A stretch of DNA of 39,255 nt from Bacillota bacterium. Lineage in GTDB: Bacteria; Bacillota; Clostridia; Acetivibrionales; DTU013. How positions within the stretch are numbered: position 1 is the first letter of the stretch; each line of letters starts with the position of its first letter. The notes beneath the pieces are model-generated. The model was not told where the DNA came from. It did no database searches and saw only the letters and a program-made list of their open reading frames with translations. Positions 6,882 to 39,255 of this stretch are shown here, piece after piece. The translations under genes were made by a program, and so were the position numbers. Location: the NCBI GenBank assembly GCA_023415815.1, contig JAEZJL010000331.1, forward strand, positions 1 through 39,255, in the 5' to 3' direction.

Positions 6882-6959
6882 ATCATCACCTCGGGTCTAT
6901 TTTTTGATGAATCGTATAAAATAATGCTGTCAATTATGTTCACTACTGTAAATTCGTTC

Positions 6960-6988
6960 TTGACATGAACATGTGTTTGCGGAATAAT
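6960..6988 (+). promoter_or_regulatory. Sigma-A-type promoter of the topoisomerase operon, with an embedded LexA (Cheo)-type box
   Basis: TTGACA (6960-6965), 17-nt spacer, AATAAT (6983-6988). The spacer contains TGAACATGTGTTTG (6966-6979), which matches the GAACAnnTGTTTG seen at uvrB and uvrA. Confidence 0.55.
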
Positions 6989-7020
6989 AAAGCTGAGAAT
7001 ATTTCGGAGGAAGCACACCA

Positions 7021-9003
7021 ATGATAAAAAGCAAAAAGCCCGAAGTCTACGGCAACGAAAGCATTTCATCACTCAAGGGGGCGGACAGGGTAAGGCTGCG
7101 TCCCGGCGTCATATTCGGCTCCGACGGCATAGAGGGCTGCCAGCACTCCTTTTTTGAAATCCTCTCGAATTCCATCGACGAGGCGCGCGAAGGCTACGGC
7201 AGCACGATCGCCGTCACCCGCTGCGGCGACCGTTCAATCGTCGTAAGCGATCAGGGAAGGGGCATACCCCTCGACTACAACCCCAAGGAGGAGAAATACA
7301 ACTGGGAGCTGGTCTTCTGCGAGCTCTATGCGGGAGGCAAATACAAGAACAATTCGGGCGAGAGCTATGAATTCAGCCTCGGTCTGAACGGCCTAGGCTC
7401 CTGCGCCACCCAGTACAGCTCGGAGTATATGGACGTCACGGTTTTCCGGGACGGCTTCAGGTACGACCTGCATTTTGAAAAAGGCCAGAACATCGGCGGC
7501 CTGATGAAGGAGAAATGCAAATACCCCCATACGGGCACCATACAAAAATGGAAGCCCGACCTTGAGGTATTTACCGATATAGACATACCGCTCGAATATT
7601 TCCAGACCGTCCTGAAAAAGCAGGCCGTCGTCAACGCCGGGCTGAGATTCGAGCTTTACGACGAAGCCTCCGGGCAGAAATTCGAATACTGCTATGAAAA
7701 CGGAATCGTCGGTTATATAAGCGAGATAAGCGCAGACAAAGGCTTCACGGGCGTGCAGTTCTACGAGAGCTCCGCAAAGGGCAGGGACAGGGAGGACAAG
7801 CCCGAATACCGGGTCAGGATACAGACCGCCTTCTGCTTCAACAACGAGATCAACCTCCTGGAATACTATCACAATTCCAGCTTCTTAGAGCACGGAGGCT
7901 CCCCGGACAAGGCCGTCAAGGCCGCCTTCGTATACGAGCTTGACAAATGCCTGAAGGCCAGGGGCAAATATAACAAGGACGAGTCGAAAATCACCTTTGC
8001 GGACATACAGGACAGCCTTATTCTGGTTACAAACTCATTTTCCACGATAACCAGCTATGAGAACCAGACCAAGAAGTCCATCACCAACAAGTTTATACAG
8101 GAAGCGATGACGGAGTTCATAAAGCAGCAGCTCGAGGTGTACCTGATTGAGAACAAGGCTGAAAGCGACAAAATCATCGAGCAGGTCCTGGTGAACAAAA
8201 GAAGCAGGGAGACAGCCGAAAAGACCCGCATAAACATAAAGAAGAAGCTCAGCGGCACCGTCGACATGGCAAACCGGGTAAAGAAGTTCGTGGACTGCAG
8301 GACGAAGGACACCGACCGGCGGGAGCTTTATATCGTGGAGGGCGACTCGGCACTCGGCTCCTGCAAGATGGGAAGGGACGCGGAATTCCAGGCCATCATG
8401 CCGGTCAGGGGTAAAATTCTCAACTGCCTGAAGGCGGAATACGACAGCATATTCAAGAACGAGATCATCGTGGACCTGCTCAAGGTGCTGGGCTGCGGTG
8501 TCGAGATAAAATCCAGGCACAATAGGGACCTCCACACCTTCGAGCTGGAAAACCTGCGGTGGAGCAAGATCATCATATGCACCGACGCCGACGTGGACGG
8601 CTTCCAGATCAGGACGCTGATCCTTGCGATGCTCTACAGGCTTGTGCCCACGCTCATCCAGGAGCGCAAGGTCTTTATTGCGGAATCTCCCCTGTTTGAA
8701 ATTACAACGAGGAGCAAAACACACTTTGCTTACAGCGAAAAGGAGAAGAACGCTATCATCTCCAGGCTTGAAGGCAAATATACCATACAGCGCTCAAAGG
8801 GGCTGGGTGAAAACGAGCCGGAAATGATGTGGGAAACCACCATGAATCCCGAGACCAGGAAGCTTATACAGGTCGTTCCCGATGATACGGGCGGCCGGAC
8901 CGAGCTCATGTTTGACCTGCTGCTGGGCGAGAACCTCCAGGGCAGGAAGGGCTTTATAGAGGAGAACGGATACAGGTACATGGACATGATCGATGTGAGC
9001 TGA
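7021..9003 (+). CDS. parE: Type IIA DNA topoisomerase subunit B (topoisomerase IV ParE-like / GyrB paralogue)
   Basis: 660 aa. GHKL ATPase N-terminus (LEGCQHSFFEILSNSIDEA, GLNGLG). Toprim motifs YIVEGDSALGS, PVRGKILN, ICTDADVDGFQI. Confidence 0.85.
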   Translation: MIKSKKPEVYGNESISSLKGADRVRLRPGVIFGSDGIEGCQHSFFEILSNSIDEAREGYGSTIAVTRCGDRSIVVSDQGRGIPLDYNPKEEKYNWELVFCELYAGGKYKNNSGESYEFSLGLNGLGSCATQYSSEYMDVTVFRDGFRYDLHFEKGQNIGGLMKEKCKYPHTGTIQKWKPDLEVFTDIDIPLEYFQTVLKKQAVVNAGLRFELYDEASGQKFEYCYENGIVGYISEISADKGFTGVQFYESSAKGRDREDKPEYRVRIQTAFCFNNEINLLEYYHNSSFLEHGGSPDKAVKAAFVYELDKCLKARGKYNKDESKITFADIQDSLILVTNSFSTITSYENQTKKSITNKFIQEAMTEFIKQQLEVYLIENKAESDKIIEQVLVNKRSRETAEKTRINIKKKLSGTVDMANRVKKFVDCRTKDTDRRELYIVEGDSALGSCKMGRDAEFQAIMPVRGKILNCLKAEYDSIFKNEIIVDLLKVLGCGVEIKSRHNRDLHTFELENLRWSKIIICTDADVDGFQIRTLILAMLYRLVPTLIQERKVFIAESPLFEITTRSKTHFAYSEKEKNAIISRLEGKYTIQRSKGLGENEPEMMWETTMNPETRKLIQVVPDDTGGRTELMFDLLLGENLQGRKGFIEENGYRYMDMIDVS

Positions 9004-21589: not shown

Positions 21590-22942
21590 CTATTTCCCGA
21601 AGAATTCATTGTACAGCGCCCTCACGGCGTTGACGCTGTCGGGGGCCTTTACCCCGAAAACGATGCTGACCTCGGAAGCGCCCTGATTGATCATTTCAAT
21701 ATTGATGGAAGAGCCCGCAAACGCTTCCGTCGCCCTTGACGCTATGCCTACCGTATGCTGCATGCCTTCGCCTACGATCATTACCAGGGCGAGGTCGTGC
21801 TGCACATAGATGTCGTCTACCAGCATTTCGGTTTTTATGCGGCTGACGATACGCTCCTCCTTGACGCTGTCGAGCTGGCTTTGCTTCAGGATGACGGACA
21901 GGTTGTCTATCCCTGAGGGGATATGTTCGTAGGACAAGTGTTCCTCTTCAAGAATATGCAATATCTTGCGTCCGAAGCCAACCTCACGGTTCATCAGGTA
22001 TTTGCTCATGTAGATGCAGCAGAAGCCGGAATCGCTTGCTATGCCCACCACGGGACGGGTTATGCTGCTCCGGCTTTTCAGAATGGTGGTGCCGGGCGCG
22101 TCGGGGTTGTTTGTGTTCTTAATCCTGACGGGTATTCCTTTAATGAATACGGGTACCAGCGCTTCTTCGTGGAATACGCTGAAGCCTGCATACGAAAGCT
22201 CTCTCATTTCCCTGTATGTCAGCTCGTGTATGGGATATGGATTCGGCACGATATTTGGGTTGACGGAAAACACGCTGTCAACGTCTGTGAAATTCTCGTA
22301 CAGATCAGCTTCGACAGCCGCCGCAAGTATTGAGCCCGTTATGTCCGAGCCGCCTCTCGGCAGGGTGACCACGTCGCCGTCCGGGGAATAGCCGAAGAAG
22401 CCCGGAAATATTGAAATGCCGGGCGCATCCTTTAAAGCCCGAAGATTTTCATAGGATTGGGGAAGCACCTGCGCGTTTCCGAATTCATCGCTGAGCAGCA
22501 GCCCCGCGTCCTTCGGATTTATATAGCTCGCATCCGCTCCGGTGCTTTTCAGGTATTCGGCGACCAGCTTCGCGCAGTTGTCCTCGCCTGCTGCCTTCAG
22601 GCAATCCATGAATTTGTCCTTGTTTGAAATGTCGCCTTCAAGCCTGCTCTTCAGGTCCAGAGCGATGGAATCCGTTATCCTGTCCGACAGGCCCAGCTCC
22701 GATGCAATATCCGCAAACCTATTTACGAGCGCCGCCAGCTCTATGTCGGCCGTGCCATTCTCCAGCTTTGCCTTCGCACAGGCGATCAGCATGTCCGTGA
22801 CCTTCGTATCCTCTTTGCTGCGCTTCCCGGGAGCCGATACGACGACCAGCCTGCGCTCCGGGTCCGAGAGGACGATTTTACAGACCTTTTTTATCTGATC
22901 GGCGGAAGCCAGAGACGTCCCGCCAAATTTTGCAACTTTCAT
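21590..22942 (-). CDS. lysC: Aspartate kinase (monofunctional, ~450 aa class)
   Basis: MKVAKFGGTSLA and VVVSAPGK kinase motifs, with C-terminal ACT-like repeats. GGAGG inside the ORF-track N-terminal extension (start 22957) serves as the RBS for ATG 22942. Confidence 0.9.
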   Translation of the reverse strand: MKVAKFGGTSLASADQIKKVCKIVLSDPERRLVVVSAPGKRSKEDTKVTDMLIACAKAKLENGTADIELAALVNRFADIASELGLSDRITDSIALDLKSRLEGDISNKDKFMDCLKAAGEDNCAKLVAEYLKSTGADASYINPKDAGLLLSDEFGNAQVLPQSYENLRALKDAPGISIFPGFFGYSPDGDVVTLPRGGSDITGSILAAAVEADLYENFTDVDSVFSVNPNIVPNPYPIHELTYREMRELSYAGFSVFHEEALVPVFIKGIPVRIKNTNNPDAPGTTILKSRSSITRPVVGIASDSGFCCIYMSKYLMNREVGFGRKILHILEEEHLSYEHIPSGIDNLSVILKQSQLDSVKEERIVSRIKTEMLVDDIYVQHDLALVMIVGEGMQHTVGIASRATEAFAGSSINIEMINQGASEVSIVFGVKAPDSVNAVRALYNEFFGK

Positions 22943-23049
22943 TTTATTAACCTCCATTTTTTACATGCAGGCATCCATGGCGCATAACCGCGGCAATTTT
23001 CCGCGCACCTTTTGTTACCTGTATTCCACCCTGTTTACAATATGCAAAT

Positions 23050-23131: not shown

Positions 23132-23172
23132 AGAACATTTGTTTGATTTTGAATGCAGGGGTGGTGTATAAT
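23132..23172 (+). promoter_or_regulatory. LexA (Cheo)-type SOS box overlapping the uvrB promoter
   Basis: AGAACATTTGTTTG (23132-23145). -35 TTGATT (23143-23148), 18-nt spacer, -10 TATAAT (23167-23172). Same layout as at uvrA. Confidence 0.7.
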
Positions 23173-23178
23173 AGGTGA

Positions 23179-23222
23179 GGGGACAGTTCTGCAAAGGACT
23201 GTGCCGAGAACTGTCCCCTTTT
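23179..23222 (+). ncRNA. uvrB leader module 1: terminator-like hairpin starting at about +1
   Basis: GGGGACAGTTCT (23179-23190) pairs with AGAACTGTCCCC (23207-23218), followed by TTTT. An alternative inner hairpin pairs CAGTTCT with AGGACTG (23195-23201) around a GCAA loop. Confidence 0.55.
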
Positions 23223-23238
23223 GACGCTAAAGCTGACC

Positions 23239-23281
23239 GGGACAGTTCTGCAAAGAACTGAGCCGGGAACTGTCCCCTTTT
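23239..23281 (+). ncRNA. uvrB leader module 2: tandem copy of module 1
   Basis: GGGACAGTTC (23239-23248) pairs with GAACTGTCCC (23267-23276), followed by CTTTT. Inner alternative pairs CAGTTCT (23243-23249) with AGAACTG (23254-23260) around GCAA. Both modules end in TGTCCCCTTTTGACGCT. A third GGGGGACAGG half-site lies at 23298-23307. Confidence 0.55.
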
Positions 23282-23332
23282 GACGCTGAGGTGCAGCGGG
23301 GGACAGGTTGGGTTGTAAAACGGGAGGAGATT

Positions 23333-25309
23333 ATGCCGGAGTTTAAGATTGTTTCAGATTATAAAATGCGCGGAGACCAGCCGGAGGCTGTGGAGAAGCT
23401 GGTCAACGGGCTGAACAGGGGCTACGGGCACCAGACGCTGCTCGGCGTCACGGGTTCGGGCAAGACCTTTACCATGGCAAACGTTATTGAAAGGGTGCAG
23501 AGACCCACGCTGGTCATCGCCCACAATAAAACCCTTGTGGCGCAGCTCTGCAGCGAGTTCAAGGAATTTTTCCCGGACAACGCCGTCGAGTATTTCGTCA
23601 GCTATTACGATTACTACCAGCCGGAGGCCTATATACCTTCGACCGACACTTATATAGAAAAGGATTCCTCGATAAACGACGAGATCGACAAGCTGAGGCA
23701 CTCGGCCACCGCAGCGCTGTTCGAGAGGCGCGACGTCATCATCGTCGCCAGCGTTTCCTGCATTTATGGCCTGGGCGACCCGGAGGACTACACCGAGCTT
23801 ATGCTGTCGCTGCGGCCGGGGATGCGCAGGGACAGGGACGAGATCATACGCAAGCTGGTAGATATACAATACGAGAGGAACGAGATAGACTTCAGGCGCG
23901 GAAAATTCAGGGCCAGGGGAGATGTGCTTGAGATATTCCCGCCCGACTCCTCCGACAGGGTGCTCCGCATAGAGTTTTTCGGAGACGAGATCGAGAGGAT
24001 TTCGGAGATAAATTACCTCACGGGCGAGATTCTCGGTATACGCACGCATGCGGCGATTTTTCCGGCAAACCATTATGCCACGACCAGGGTTAAAATGGAG
24101 AGGTCGGTCATCACCATAGAAAAGGAGCTGGAGGAGCGGCTTGCGGAGCTCAAGAGCCAGGGAAAGCTGCTGGAGGCGCAGAGGCTGGAGCAGAGGACGC
24201 GATACGACCTGGAAATGCTGCAGGAGGTCGGCTTCTGCCAGGGCATAGAAAATTACTCCAGGCATATCAGCGGCAGAGAGCCGGGGAGCTCTCCGTACAC
24301 CCTGATCGACTATTTCCCGGAGGACCTGCTTATGATAATAGACGAGTCGCATGTTTCGGTGCCCCAGATAGGAGGCATGTACAACGGCGACAGGTCGAGG
24401 AAGGAATCGCTCGTGGAATACGGCTTCAGGCTGCCCTCTGCCTTTGACAACAGACCCTTGAAATTCGATGAATTTGAAAAGAAGATGAAGCAGGTGGTCT
24501 ATGTCAGCGCAACGCCGGGTCAGTACGAGAAAAGGCACTCAAACCAGGTGGCGGAGCAGATCATCCGGCCGACGGGGCTCATCGACCCCGAGGTGATTGT
24601 GAAGCCTGTCAAAGGGCAGATCGACGACCTCATCGGGGAGATAACGAAGCGGGTCGGAATGAATCACAGGGTTCTTGTGACCACGCTTACAAAAAAGATG
24701 GCGGAGGACCTCACAAGCTACCTGAAGGAGCTGGAATTCAAGGTCGAATACCTGCATTCGGATGTTGAGACGCTCCAGAGGATGGAGCTGATAAGAAACC
24801 TCAGGCTCGGCGTATTCGACGTGCTTGTGGGGATAAATCTGCTGAGGGAGGGCCTTGACCTTCCCGAGGTCTCGCTTGTCGCTATACTTGACGCGGACAA
24901 GGAGGGCTTCCTGCGCTCCGAGACCTCGCTCATACAGACCATCGGAAGGGCCGCCAGAAATGTCGAGGGCACTGTCGTAATGTACGCCGACACGGTCACC
25001 GAGTCCATGAGGAAGGCGATAAGCGAAACCAACAGAAGAAGAAAAATACAGATGGAGTACAACGCCGAAAACGGCATCACTCCCACCACCGTGCAGAAGG
25101 GCGTAAGGGATATTCTCGAGACCATAAAGATTTCCGAGGACGGCTCCAGGTACGACTTCAAGGGCAGCCCCGACGAAATGGCCAGGGAGGATATTGAAAA
25201 GCTGCTGCTGAAGCTGGAAAAGGAAATGAAGGAAGCGGCGAGAGAGCTGCAGTTTGAGAGGGCCGCAGTGCTGAGGGACAGGGCTCAGGAGCTGAAAAAG
25301 CGGCTGTAA
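23333..25309 (+). CDS. uvrB: Excinuclease ABC subunit B
   Basis: [17 protein letters not shown]..., Walker [13 protein letters not shown] box (IIDESHV), C-terminal UVR motif ([12 protein letters not shown]). GGGAGGAG RBS supports ATG 23333 rather than the ORF-track GTG 23291. Confidence 0.95.
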
Positions 25310-37510: not shown

Positions 37511-37547
37511 AAAAATCAGGTGTGCCTGTGCGCCTGATTTTTTTCTC
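37511..37547 (+). terminator. Intrinsic terminator after the response-regulator gene
   Basis: AATCAGGTG (37514-37522) pairs with CGCCTGATT (37531-37539) with one G-U pair, followed by a T-run to 37547. The A-run on the 5' side could make it bidirectional. Confidence 0.75.
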
Positions 37548-37556
37548 AATAAAATT

Positions 37557-37596
37557 CGAACAAGTGTTTGCATTTTAAAAACAACTTGGGTATAAT
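37557..37596 (+). promoter_or_regulatory. LexA (Cheo)-type SOS box overlapping the uvrA promoter
   Basis: CGAACAAGTGTTTG (37557-37570). -35 TTGCAT (37568-37573), 17-nt spacer, -10 TATAAT (37591-37596). Confidence 0.75.
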
Positions 37597-37601
37597 AGTG
37601 A

Positions 37602-37653
37602 GGGGACACACCTCTCCCGCCGACGGACTGAGCGTCGAGGAATGTCCCCTTTT
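37602..37653 (+). ncRNA. uvrA leader module: terminator-like hairpin homologous to the uvrB leader modules
   Basis: GGGGACA (37602-37608) pairs with TGTCCCC (37643-37649), with inner CCTC/GAGG and CGACG/CGTCG helices, followed by TTTTGACGCTGAAGCT. Additional GGGACACACTTCTCCCGCCG (37670-37689) and GGGGACAGGG (37689-37698) half-sites lie downstream. Confidence 0.55.
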
Positions 37654-37769
37654 GACGCTGAAGCTATTTGGGACACACTTCTCCCGCCGGGGACAGGGCT
37701 CTGGGTTGGTTCAATATAGATGCGAGGCGGATTGGACTTGATTTTTATTATTGACAGGCAGGTGCTTAT

Positions 37770-39255
37770 ATGACTACAAACAGTATTTTTATCAAGGGCG
37801 CGAGGGAGCATAACCTCAAAAACATCGATGTGGAGATACCGAGGGACAAGTTCGTCGTGATTACCGGCCTCAGCGGTTCGGGCAAATCCTCGCTGGCCTT
37901 CGACACGATCTACGCCGAAGGGCAGAGGCGCTATGTGGAGTCCCTCTCGGCCTATGCAAGGCAGTTCCTCGGCCAGATGGAAAAGCCCGAGGTGGACTAT
38001 ATTAACGGGCTTTCGCCGGCAATCTCGATAGACCAGAAGACCACCAGCAGGAATCCGCGTTCGACCGTCGGCACGGTCACGGAGATATACGACTATCTAA
38101 GGCTTCTTTATGCGCGTATCGGAATACCGCACTGCCACATCTGCGGCAAGGAGATAAGTCAGCAGACCGTCGACCAGATGGTGGACGGCATCATGAGCAA
38201 GGAGGAAGGGACCAGGATACAGCTGCTGGCGCCCGTGGTCAGAGGCAGGAAGGGCGAGTACCACAAGCTGATAGAGGACGCCAGGAAGAACGGCTACGTG
38301 AGGGTCCGGGTCGACGGAGAGGTAAGGGAGATAACGGAAGAGATCAATCTGGATAAAAACAAGAAGCACACCATAGAAATCGTTGTGGACAGGCTGATAG
38401 TAAGACCGGATATGCATAAAAGGCTTGCGGACTCCATCGAGACCGCCCTGCACCTGAGCGGAGGCTTGCTGGTGGTCGACGTGACGGGCGGCGAGGAAAT
38501 GCTTTTCAGCCAGAATTTTGCCTGCAGCGACTGCGGGGTGAGCATCGAAGAGCTGACCCCAAGGATGTTCTCCTTCAACAACCCCTATGGCGCCTGCCCC
38601 ACGTGCAGCGGCCTGGGGACGCTTCTCAAGATGGACCCGGACCTGATCCTGCCCGACCGGACCAAATCCCTTTCCGGAGGGGCGATAAGGGTGGGCGGCT
38701 GGAATTCGGAAAACGAAGACAGCTACGCCAGGATGTTCATCAACGGTCTTGCAAAGCATTACAGCTTCAGTGTAGACACTCCCGTAAACAAGCTATCCCC
38801 GGAAATTGTGGATATCATACTCTACGGCACCAAGGGTGAAAAAATACAGGTCGCCTATGAGAAGGAATACGGCAGCGGGACCTTCCACTCCGCTTTCGAG
38901 GGCGTAATAAACAGCATGGAGAGACGCTACAAGGAAACGCAGTCGGACGGGATGAAGCAGTATTACGAGGAATTCATGAGCAGCAATCCCTGTCCGGATT
39001 GCAAGGGCGCCAGGCTGAAAAAAGAGAGCCTTGCCGTGACCATAGGCGGCTGTAACGCACACGAGCTGACCTGTATGCCCGTGCTTGACGTCAGGGGATT
39101 TTTTGCGGACCTGAAGCTCAGCGAGCGGGAAAACTTGATTGCGCACCAGATATTGAAGGAAATCAACGCAAGGATAGGCTTCCTTGTGGACGTGGGGCTC
39201 GATTACCTGACGCTGTCGAGATCCGCAGGCACCCTCTCGGGCGGCGAGGCCCAGC
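37770..39255 (+). CDS. uvrA: Excinuclease ABC subunit A, 5' part (continues beyond the window)
   Basis: My own translation from ATG 37770 gives [73 protein letters not shown]..., with the zinc-finger CHICG...CSDCG. The frame stays open to the end of the window, which explains its absence from the ORF track. Confidence 0.95.

Follow-up and report, generated by a model that had tools for sequence, protein, structure and literature searches.

The window analysed here is a 39,255-nucleotide stretch of the genome of a Bacillota bacterium (GenBank assembly GCA_023415815.1, contig JAEZJL010000331.1) that contains uvrB and the 5' part of uvrA, each preceded by a putative LexA-controlled promoter and by a leader that carries a hairpin-forming module in more than one whole or partial copy. 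Judged by its UvrB homologues, the window belongs to an Acetivibrio/Ruminiclostridium-like clade. A first-pass annotation had reported two tandem modules and a half-site between the SOS promoter and uvrB, which is what the sequence contains, and had read them as attenuators that impose a second layer of control on nucleotide excision repair. The modules are probably instead copies of a lineage-specific, multi-copy, interspersed hairpin repeat that resembles repetitive extragenic palindromes (REP), BOX elements or miniature inverted-repeat transposable elements (MITEs), any effect on expression being a by-product.

The divergent neighbour of uvrB is a minus-strand gene of the aspartate kinase type (21590-22957, with Pfam AA_kinase and ACT domains). 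The -10 of the uvrB promoter coincides with the TATAAT-like head of the repeat, and six bases separate it from the first arm of module 1. The arms of this module, GGGGACAGTTCT (23179-23190) and AGAACTGTCCCC (23207-23218), are followed by TTTTGACGCT, as are those of module 2 (23239-23249 and 23267-23277). The two units, of 59 nucleotides each, are 85% identical and recur with a period of 59 nucleotides according to one repeat search, whereas TRF did not report them. The window contains three copies of the 17-mer TGTCCCCTTTTGACGCT, where 0.12 would be expected, and none of 100 shuffles had three or more; the third copy (37643), overlooked by the first-pass annotation, lies in the uvrA leader. 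The folding energies are -24.5 kcal/mol for module 1 (z = -4.9) and -19.2 kcal/mol for module 2. The competing inner hairpin that had been described is present (CAGUUCU-GCAA-AGAACUG, -12.9 kcal/mol), pairing of the third half-site with the module 2 3' arm is possible (-22.1 kcal/mol), and in the fold of the full-length leader unit 2 favours the inner hairpin, with its 3' arm paired to the downstream half-site. The predicted transcript opens with these hairpins, in agreement with the annotation, and its start may lie at the base of the first stem.

Table 1. Features of the uvrB and uvrA leaders in the window
Feature	Position	Strand	Remarks
Cheo/LexA box AGAACATTTGTTTG	23132-23145	+	overlaps the -35 of the uvrB promoter; box type kept in uvrB leaders of relatives
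uvrB promoter	TTGATT 23143-23148; 18-nt spacer; TATAAT 23167-23172	+	10/12 match
Repeat unit 1	23179-23238	+	hairpin 23179-23218, tail TTTTGACGCTAAAGC, linker
Repeat unit 2	23239-23297	+	outer hairpin 23239-23277, alternative inner hairpin 23243-23260, tail TTTTGACGCTGAGG
Terminal partial unit, 5' arm only, GGGGGACAGG	23298-23307	+	able to pair with the 3' arm of unit 2
Ribosome-binding site GGGAGGAG (23322) and uvrB (ATG 23333)	23322-25309	+	UvrB Pfam domains; record P0001 100% identical
uvrA promoter	37557-37596	+	Cheo box CGAACAAGTGTTTG 37557-37570; TTTGCA; 18-nt spacer; TATAAT 37591-37596
Canonical repeat unit, uvrA leader	37602-37664	+	GGGGACACACCTC...GAGGAATGTCCCC, then TTTTGACGCTGAAGC; -22.9 kcal/mol
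Two partial units closing the uvrA array	37670-37698	+	GGGACACACTTC at 37670, GGGGACAGGG at 37689
uvrA, 5' part (ATG 37770)	37770-39255 (beyond window end)	+	UvrA Pfam domains

The pattern GAAC-N4-GTT(C/T) has three matches in the window, against 0.43 expected. At uvrB and uvrA these boxes overlap the -35/-10 region in the manner of a LexA (Cheo-box) SOS promoter, and LexA binding to them is predicted. The SOS promoter named in the annotation is plausible, a GAAC-N4-GTTT box over the -35 being kept in the uvrB and uvrA leaders of relatives. A LexA-type box is retained in L001, L004, L006, L031-L035 and L157 (L numbers designate the sequence stretches compared), and at uvrA and uvrB the -10 lies 20-22 nucleotides after the box, the same location as in element-free relatives. 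The terminator of the gene before uvrA (37511-37541, with seven T at its end) is situated just upstream of the uvrA promoter. The third box of the window, GAACATGTGTTTG (6967-6979), lies within a promoter composed of TTGACA, a 17-nucleotide spacer and AATAAT (6953-6990), at which there is no hairpin module. The gene behind it (7021-9003), followed by a 732-amino-acid open reading frame (ORF), is GyrB/ParE-like and would be an unusual member of the SOS regulon.

The units of uvrA and uvrB have in common a 3' block, CGGGGACAGG...TGGGTTG, and a loop motif, G(G/A)ACTG, that is found elsewhere only in L030 and in none of 133 cores of the broad hairpin family described below. The shared loop motif points to a common recent source and suggests that one uvr leader may have seeded the other, perhaps through their similar LexA-box/-10 sequences.

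A scan of GTDB representatives (one genome per species) with the exact 19-mer TGTCCCCTTTTGACGCTRA returned 24 stretches, 23 of them in ten metagenome-assembled genomes (MAGs) of uncultured Clostridia and one a chance match in Rhodobacter. The carriers include Hungateiclostridiaceae UBA1305, several 'Bacillota bacterium OH_*', Oscillospiraceae, and Clostridiaceae 8_bin.75. With mismatches tolerated, the loci so found yielded, together with the window, 53 units, and shuffled sequence yielded none. The consensus of the family is (TATAAT)GTAA-GGGGACACACCTC-[loop]-GAGGAATGTCCCC-TTTTGACGCTAAAGC-N5-GGGACACACC; each unit forms the hairpin GGGGACA-(CA)-CCUC ... GAGG-(AA)-UGUCCCC around a free loop, and the terminal partial unit GGGACACACC closes most arrays.

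The arrays occupy approximately 24 independent sites whose neighbours are unrelated genes. Downstream genes that could be typed by Pfam encode a GNAT acetyltransferase, an amidohydrolase, CheW, M50 and C26 peptidases, a flavodoxin/metallo-beta-lactamase flavoprotein, a DnaD-like protein, an amino-acid kinase (ProB-like), a diacylglycerol kinase, GDPD, 6-phosphogluconate dehydrogenase (gnd), thymidylate kinase (tmk), a GT2 glycosyltransferase, a PHP protein and phosphoglucomutase, and up to four units precede such ordinary genes (L013). Three sites have antisense copies. In L007 the copy lies downstream of a lysine riboswitch, between dapA (named by eye) and dapB (typed by Pfam); in L016 and L019 it separates smpB (named by eye) from tmRNA; and in L030 it is flanked by two minus-strand ORFs, of which one looks TyrS-like by eye. 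The tmRNA of L016 and L019 was missed by ARAGORN and detected by Rfam. The repeat spans 5937-6025 of L016 and 4216-4290 of L019, where its AT-rich head touches the first base of the tmRNA (RF00023, L019 4287-4688); read on the tmRNA strand, the head is TTACAATAT, again resembling a -10.

Orthologous sites in different MAGs have unlike loop subtypes and copy numbers, as in L013 and L018 (four units versus one) and in L012 and L024 (two versus one), which implies that the repeat was inserted more than once at one promoter-proximal position or that copies converted one another. Loop subtype and copy number are also unlike at the orthologous intergenic site of L008 and L011 (6108-6202).

The uvr leaders of relatives are equally variable. 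The uvrB leader of L001 (97% UvrB identity) has three units, the first with the inner hairpin and the second and third with a mutated 5' arm, GGTCAGG, that is mismatched to the 3' arm. In L004 (96%) there are two units in a decayed state; their outer stem carries compensatory changes, and UUUU is replaced by UUCU. The module is absent from the short uvrB leaders of five relatives with 86-90% UvrB identity (L006, L031/32, L033, L034/35), which retain the LexA box and the -10; the LexA-type promoter is conserved with or without the repeat. Over uvrB and uvrA together, leaders with the LexA box and -10 but no module come from relatives at 84-90% protein identity. One of these relatives, L033, belongs to MAG 8_bin.75, in which the repeat is present elsewhere (L017 and L030). 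Among uvrA homologues, for which the comparison covered those of up to 85% UvrA identity, the leaders of L033 and L156 have no module. That of L157 (85%) possesses, at 230-300, the Cheo box of the window and, after TTATAAT, TTATAATGTTA-GAGGACA-TGAA-TGTCCAC, a mini-hairpin that may be either the stub that a deletion left of the two arms or a 5' stem-loop that was retained. The annotation had itself named dispersal among unrelated genes and lack of conservation upstream of uvr genes as signs of a generic repeat; both were observed, so that the reading of the modules as a dedicated attenuator or riboswitch for excision repair is not supported.

The units do show covariation, which the annotation had suggested looking for. 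Over 33 units, 81% of cells are paired, versus 43-63% when the partner column is slid, and two positions of the second helix switch between pair types (CG:23/UA:10 and CG:14/UA:11, with none and six unpaired cells, respectively). These compensatory changes indicate that the hairpin itself is under selection. In contrast, the loops range from 13 to about 130 nucleotides, their sequences are wholly unlike between loci, and complete units are nested within the loops of L011, L020, L021 and L025, so that there is no conserved ligand pocket or aptamer. Neither a conserved, covarying core nor association with one class of genes, as expected of a riboswitch or structured leader, was found among these variable loops and the element-free uvr leaders of relatives. 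Rfam searches of the window, the leader and 21 related loci with gathering and permissive thresholds gave no match on the repeat, consistent with the statement of the annotation that no described leader or riboswitch class could be recognized.

A regulated attenuator, in which a protein or ligand would set read-through by shifting the balance between the outer, terminator-like hairpins and the inner GCAA hairpins, is very unlikely. The window does offer the parts: both hairpins and a U-run in the uvrB copies, a full-length fold that puts unit 2 in a non-terminator arrangement, a conserved tail that is a candidate binding site, and the occurrence of the element at both uvr genes. A GC-rich stem followed by U in a 5' leader, with alternative pairing in the uvrB copies, is also what an intrinsic terminator or attenuator looks like. 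However, the inner hairpin is absent from canonical units with 13-nucleotide loops and is not kept even in L004, where it is down to about 4 bp (by eye), nor is there a sensor in the hypervariable loop with its nested insertions. The other partner available to the 3' arm comes only after the U-run, too late to pre-empt termination, and so it cannot be a classical antiterminator; no conserved, mutually exclusive antiterminator upstream of the terminator was found. The description of the modules as terminator-like goes too far: the U-tract, UUUUGACG, has only four U before GACGC, short of the five U in eight positions right after the stem that are expected of an intrinsic terminator, and a terminator scan calls neither uvrB module. 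L004 and L028 have UUCU at this place, and L011 has UCCU. Termination at the four U would be at most partial, given that ordinary metabolic genes also have one to four copies of the module ahead of them. The module is specific neither to a gene nor to a regulon: it stands ahead of housekeeping genes and is missing upstream of the uvr genes of relatives.

The suggestion that GGGACA/TGTCCC half-sites form a DNA operator array, through which a second transcription factor would roadblock or repress the SOS promoters, is very unlikely. Three or four half-sites do lie just downstream of each promoter, and the arm sequence is strongly conserved, but the spacing of inverted half-sites varies from 13 to about 130 nucleotides, the compensatory changes in the second helix keep pairing and not sequence, and copies are found inside operons and antisense to genes.

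The interspersed repeat that is favoured here would spread and amplify locally through tandem units and nested insertions, its hairpin being retained because propagation or persistence needs a single-stranded stem-loop. In the narrow lineage of the window, one copy may have inserted directly after the -10 at the LexA-controlled promoter of uvrA, or arrived by recombination across that -10, and another may have done likewise at the uvrB promoter and afterwards have been duplicated to 2.2 units. Entry immediately behind a resident -10, or recombination through it, is the simplest inference from the shared -10. The uvr mRNAs would then start with stable 5' stem-loops (one for uvrA, two for uvrB) followed by a short U-run. 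As a by-product, the stem-loops might protect the 5' end, cause weak constitutive termination, or both. There would be no switch that senses damage or a ligand, and LexA would stay the regulator. The effect of the added 5' stem-loops on expression is probably incidental.

Several observations weigh against this interpretation. The only two arrays of the window are both on LexA-box uvr promoters, which amounts to two of three LexA-box promoters and none of about 30 other intergenic regions; random placement would rarely put both arrays there (on the order of 1/600, by our estimate). Two arrays per 39 kb does fit the density of the family elsewhere, with about six extra arrays in 184 kb of flanks. 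Of the arrays between genes on the same strand, 16 of 19 share the orientation of the genes, and the tail of the Clostridial subfamily, UUUUGACGCUAAAGC, is conserved as strongly as the stem, both of which would also fit a selected RNA function. The mini-hairpin at the uvrA start of L157 hints that a 5' hairpin may be useful there. No transposase or other mobilizing gene was found beside any copy (the 787 neighbouring ORFs cluster into housekeeping families only), and the spread proposed above is accordingly conjectural.

The chief alternative account of why both uvr genes bear arrays is that a useful 5' hairpin was selected, and it has some, though clearly the smaller, likelihood. The repeat would be of selfish origin, but its copies at uvrA, uvrB and other 5' ends would be kept without any sensing, either because the stem-loop at the transcription start protects the mRNA from 5'-dependent RNases or because the hairpin and its four U damp basal leakage from the SOS promoters while these are partly repressed. 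The hairpin begins about 6-7 nucleotides past the -10 and would thus be at the extreme 5' end; a consensus -10 is either supplied or overlaid by the element; at 20 of 24 sites the repeat has the orientation of the gene downstream, and no site is between convergent genes; a mini-hairpin is kept at the uvrA start of L157; and two of the three LexA-box promoters of the window carry the repeat. On the other hand, close relatives manage without the repeat, copy number and U-run drift freely, antisense copies occur, co-orientation comes automatically in divergent intergenic regions, and the sample is small.

When the 50 nucleotides ahead of 30 array heads were aligned, information content was approximately zero up to -12 and then climbed through TATAAT-G-T-A-A into the stem, with no common -35. 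That the rise sets in only at -12 indicates that the head is an integral part of the repeat. Of the 30 heads, 17 have a perfect TATAAT, among them that of the antisense copy in L007. The head TATAATGTAA is conserved in the family, with GTGA, GAGA and GATA as variants, and on sequence is homologous to the broad-family head TAAGGAAA. No Cheo box could be read by eye in the 50 nucleotides before the other array heads, and a general association of the family with LexA was dropped for that reason. The TATAAT-headed, UUUUGACGCUAAAGC-tailed subfamily could also be imagined as a domesticated, movable cassette of promoter and leader, in which an RNA-binding factor or RNase that reads the tail or hairpin imposes a genome-wide post-transcriptional layer. 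This is quite unlikely, but if it were true, a -10 box, a stem-loop at the transcription start and a conserved single-stranded tail would have been installed at dozens of transcription units, uvrA and uvrB among them.

The Clostridial repeat is part of a wider family of hairpins. A metagenome scan with the arms only (GGGGACACACCT-N10-40-GGAATGTCCCC) matched at least 120 stretches (L036-L155). Among the matches listed, the tails are GATT, AACT or AAAT and not TTTTGACGCT, the head is WAAGGAAA and not TATAATGTAA, the stem contains a 2x2 internal loop (CA/AA), and loops of 28-30 nucleotides are the most frequent. The differing tails indicate that the U-run is a peculiarity of the Clostridial subfamily tail and does not define the hairpin. 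One stem pair occurs in three Watson-Crick types among the matches listed (CG 67, TA 31, GC 17), and the contexts of these matches are tandem sense (38), tandem antisense (20), divergent (10) and convergent (11). No recurrent family and no transposase was seen among the neighbour proteins of the matches listed, and the ORFs between inverted pairs in L151 and L145 include no transposase by eye. The contigs of the matches listed range from 31% to 63% G+C, and the 23 nearly invariant arm nucleotides across that range may mark a cross-lineage hairpin for a horizontally spreading enzyme. Annotated plasmids and phages contain no match to the element. Viral contigs contain five broad-family matches and one match to the tail pattern, which is inside a coding-like stretch and looks like chance.

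A GC-rich subgroup of the broad family has a perfect extended stem, CCTCGTGCC-GACG-GGCACGAGG (L037, with variants in L055, L093, L118 and L131). In L053, L056, L070, L091 and L142 a single 5' arm is followed by several 3' halves (…GAATGTCCCC) with a period of about 18-35 nucleotides, so that the 5' arm has multiple alternative partners. The doubling of AGAACTG ahead of GAACTGTCCCC in the uvrB unit of the window is a miniature of such arrays.

The element has the features of the generic class of interspersed intergenic hairpin repeats, being multi-copy, non-coding, intergenic and polymorphic in copy number between close relatives, and we file it as an undescribed family that is new to this known class. 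The pneumococcal BOX elements are reportedly intergenic stem-loops of the form boxA-boxB(n)-boxC, often in 5' regions and able to alter the expression of neighbours. On that description they share with the present repeat a head, a variable number of tandem internal units, a terminal module and stable stem-loops, whereas the sequences are unrelated and the host clade is different. The arms could act as the terminal inverted repeats of a MITE, but the 30 array borders inspected show no duplication on their flanks, and no cognate insertion sequence was found.

GTAG- or CGTC-tagged repetitive extragenic palindromes are the basis of the REP, BIME and REPIN families (PMC2817692, PMC3733652, PMC3116915). 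Like them, the present repeats are short, multi-copy, imperfect intergenic palindromes, non-coding and often transcribed within the mRNAs of neighbours, whose stem is kept despite sequence drift and whose abundance or copy number differs between close strains. Unlike them, the repeats have no GTAG or CGTC abutting the stem, which is preceded by GTAA, GTGA or GAGA; GACG, which is CGTC-AAAA on the other strand, occurs four nucleotides past it. The units are also longer (a hairpin of about 40-60 nucleotides and a tail of 15-20), the arrays are head-to-tail direct repeats and not the inverted dimers of REPINs, and no REP-associated tyrosine transposase (RAYT) was found among the neighbouring ORFs of the loci examined. 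CGTC-type REPs have a terminal CGTC tag, a stem of 8-9 bp that starts with A/T pairs, and a loop of 4-5 nucleotides (PMC3733652), whereas here CGTC is on the opposite strand four nucleotides off the stem, the stem starts with GGGG, and the loops are of at least 13 nucleotides. Assignment to the GTAG type fails because no GTAG abuts the palindrome (the heads are TATAATGTAA, GTGA, GAGA and GATA, and WAAGGAAA in the broad family). The words Firmicutes and Clostridia do not occur in the cited REP survey.

The Correia elements of Neisseria, as described in PMC2649163, are small non-coding repeats, an end of which can create a promoter hexamer for the adjacent gene and the transcribed hairpin of which affects mRNA; small size, lack of coding sequence, a -10-like end and a hairpin are shared with the present repeat. 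However, the length of 100-155 bp, long terminal inverted repeats, TA target duplication and integration host factor site of Correia elements were not seen here. Reused or 'mobile' promoters, as described in PMC3575422, are near-identical promoter-containing sequences upstream of unrelated genes within a genome. The recurrence of (G)GTATAATGTAAGGGGACACACC at eight or more unrelated loci resembles this, but only the -10 is shared, there is no conserved -35, and most of the shared part is a transcribed hairpin. In the searchable literature the arm sequences matched only unrelated primers, and nothing relevant was found on intergenic repeats of Hungateiclostridiaceae.

For excision repair, these results remove a tempting false lead, as uvrB and uvrA appear to be ordinary LexA-controlled genes with leaders colonized by a repeat. 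For annotation, they establish an undescribed repeat family, carried by uncultured Clostridia of a Hungateiclostridiaceae-like kind, together with the wider GGGGACACACC/GGAATGTCCCC hairpin superfamily of metagenomes. Should the -10-like head turn out to be active, nature would here provide a clear instance of promoter and 5' untranslated sequence copied between unrelated genes.

Several candidate explanations of other kinds were rejected. A clustered regularly interspaced short palindromic repeat (CRISPR)-like array does not agree with 'spacers' that are near-identical, nor do the repeats of a type III toxin-antitoxin RNA agree with copies scattered ahead of housekeeping genes. The loop motifs do not match ANTAR, T-box or PyrR-type targets. 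A leader peptide was discarded because the sole AUG directly adjoins its Shine-Dalgarno-like GAGGA, and TTGACG in the tail was discarded as a -35 for want of a -10 within 16-18 nucleotides.

The repeat mimics terminators and attenuators, opens spurious ORFs through an internal AUG, and breaks assemblies. The AUG within GGAATGTCCCC, or a start codon just after it in the tail, opens spurious ORFs (MSPFDAKA..., LTLKP...) in L011, L015, L016, L019, L025, L026, L030 and other loci, and gene callers may derive hypothetical proteins or wrong N-terminal extensions from them. One possible example is the ANTAR response regulator encoded downstream of glnA in L015 (3022-3864), which has repeat arrays on both sides; no ANTAR-type dual hexaloop target was recognized in these arrays. 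Heptamer microsatellites of the types (CAGAAGT)n, (CAGAGAT)n, (CCAGAAA)n, (CCAGAAT)n and (CCCCAAT)n are found within or beside units in L008, L013, L014 and L017 and in L047, L057, L098, L119 and L130, and one of them breaks the assembly of L008, leaving a run of N.

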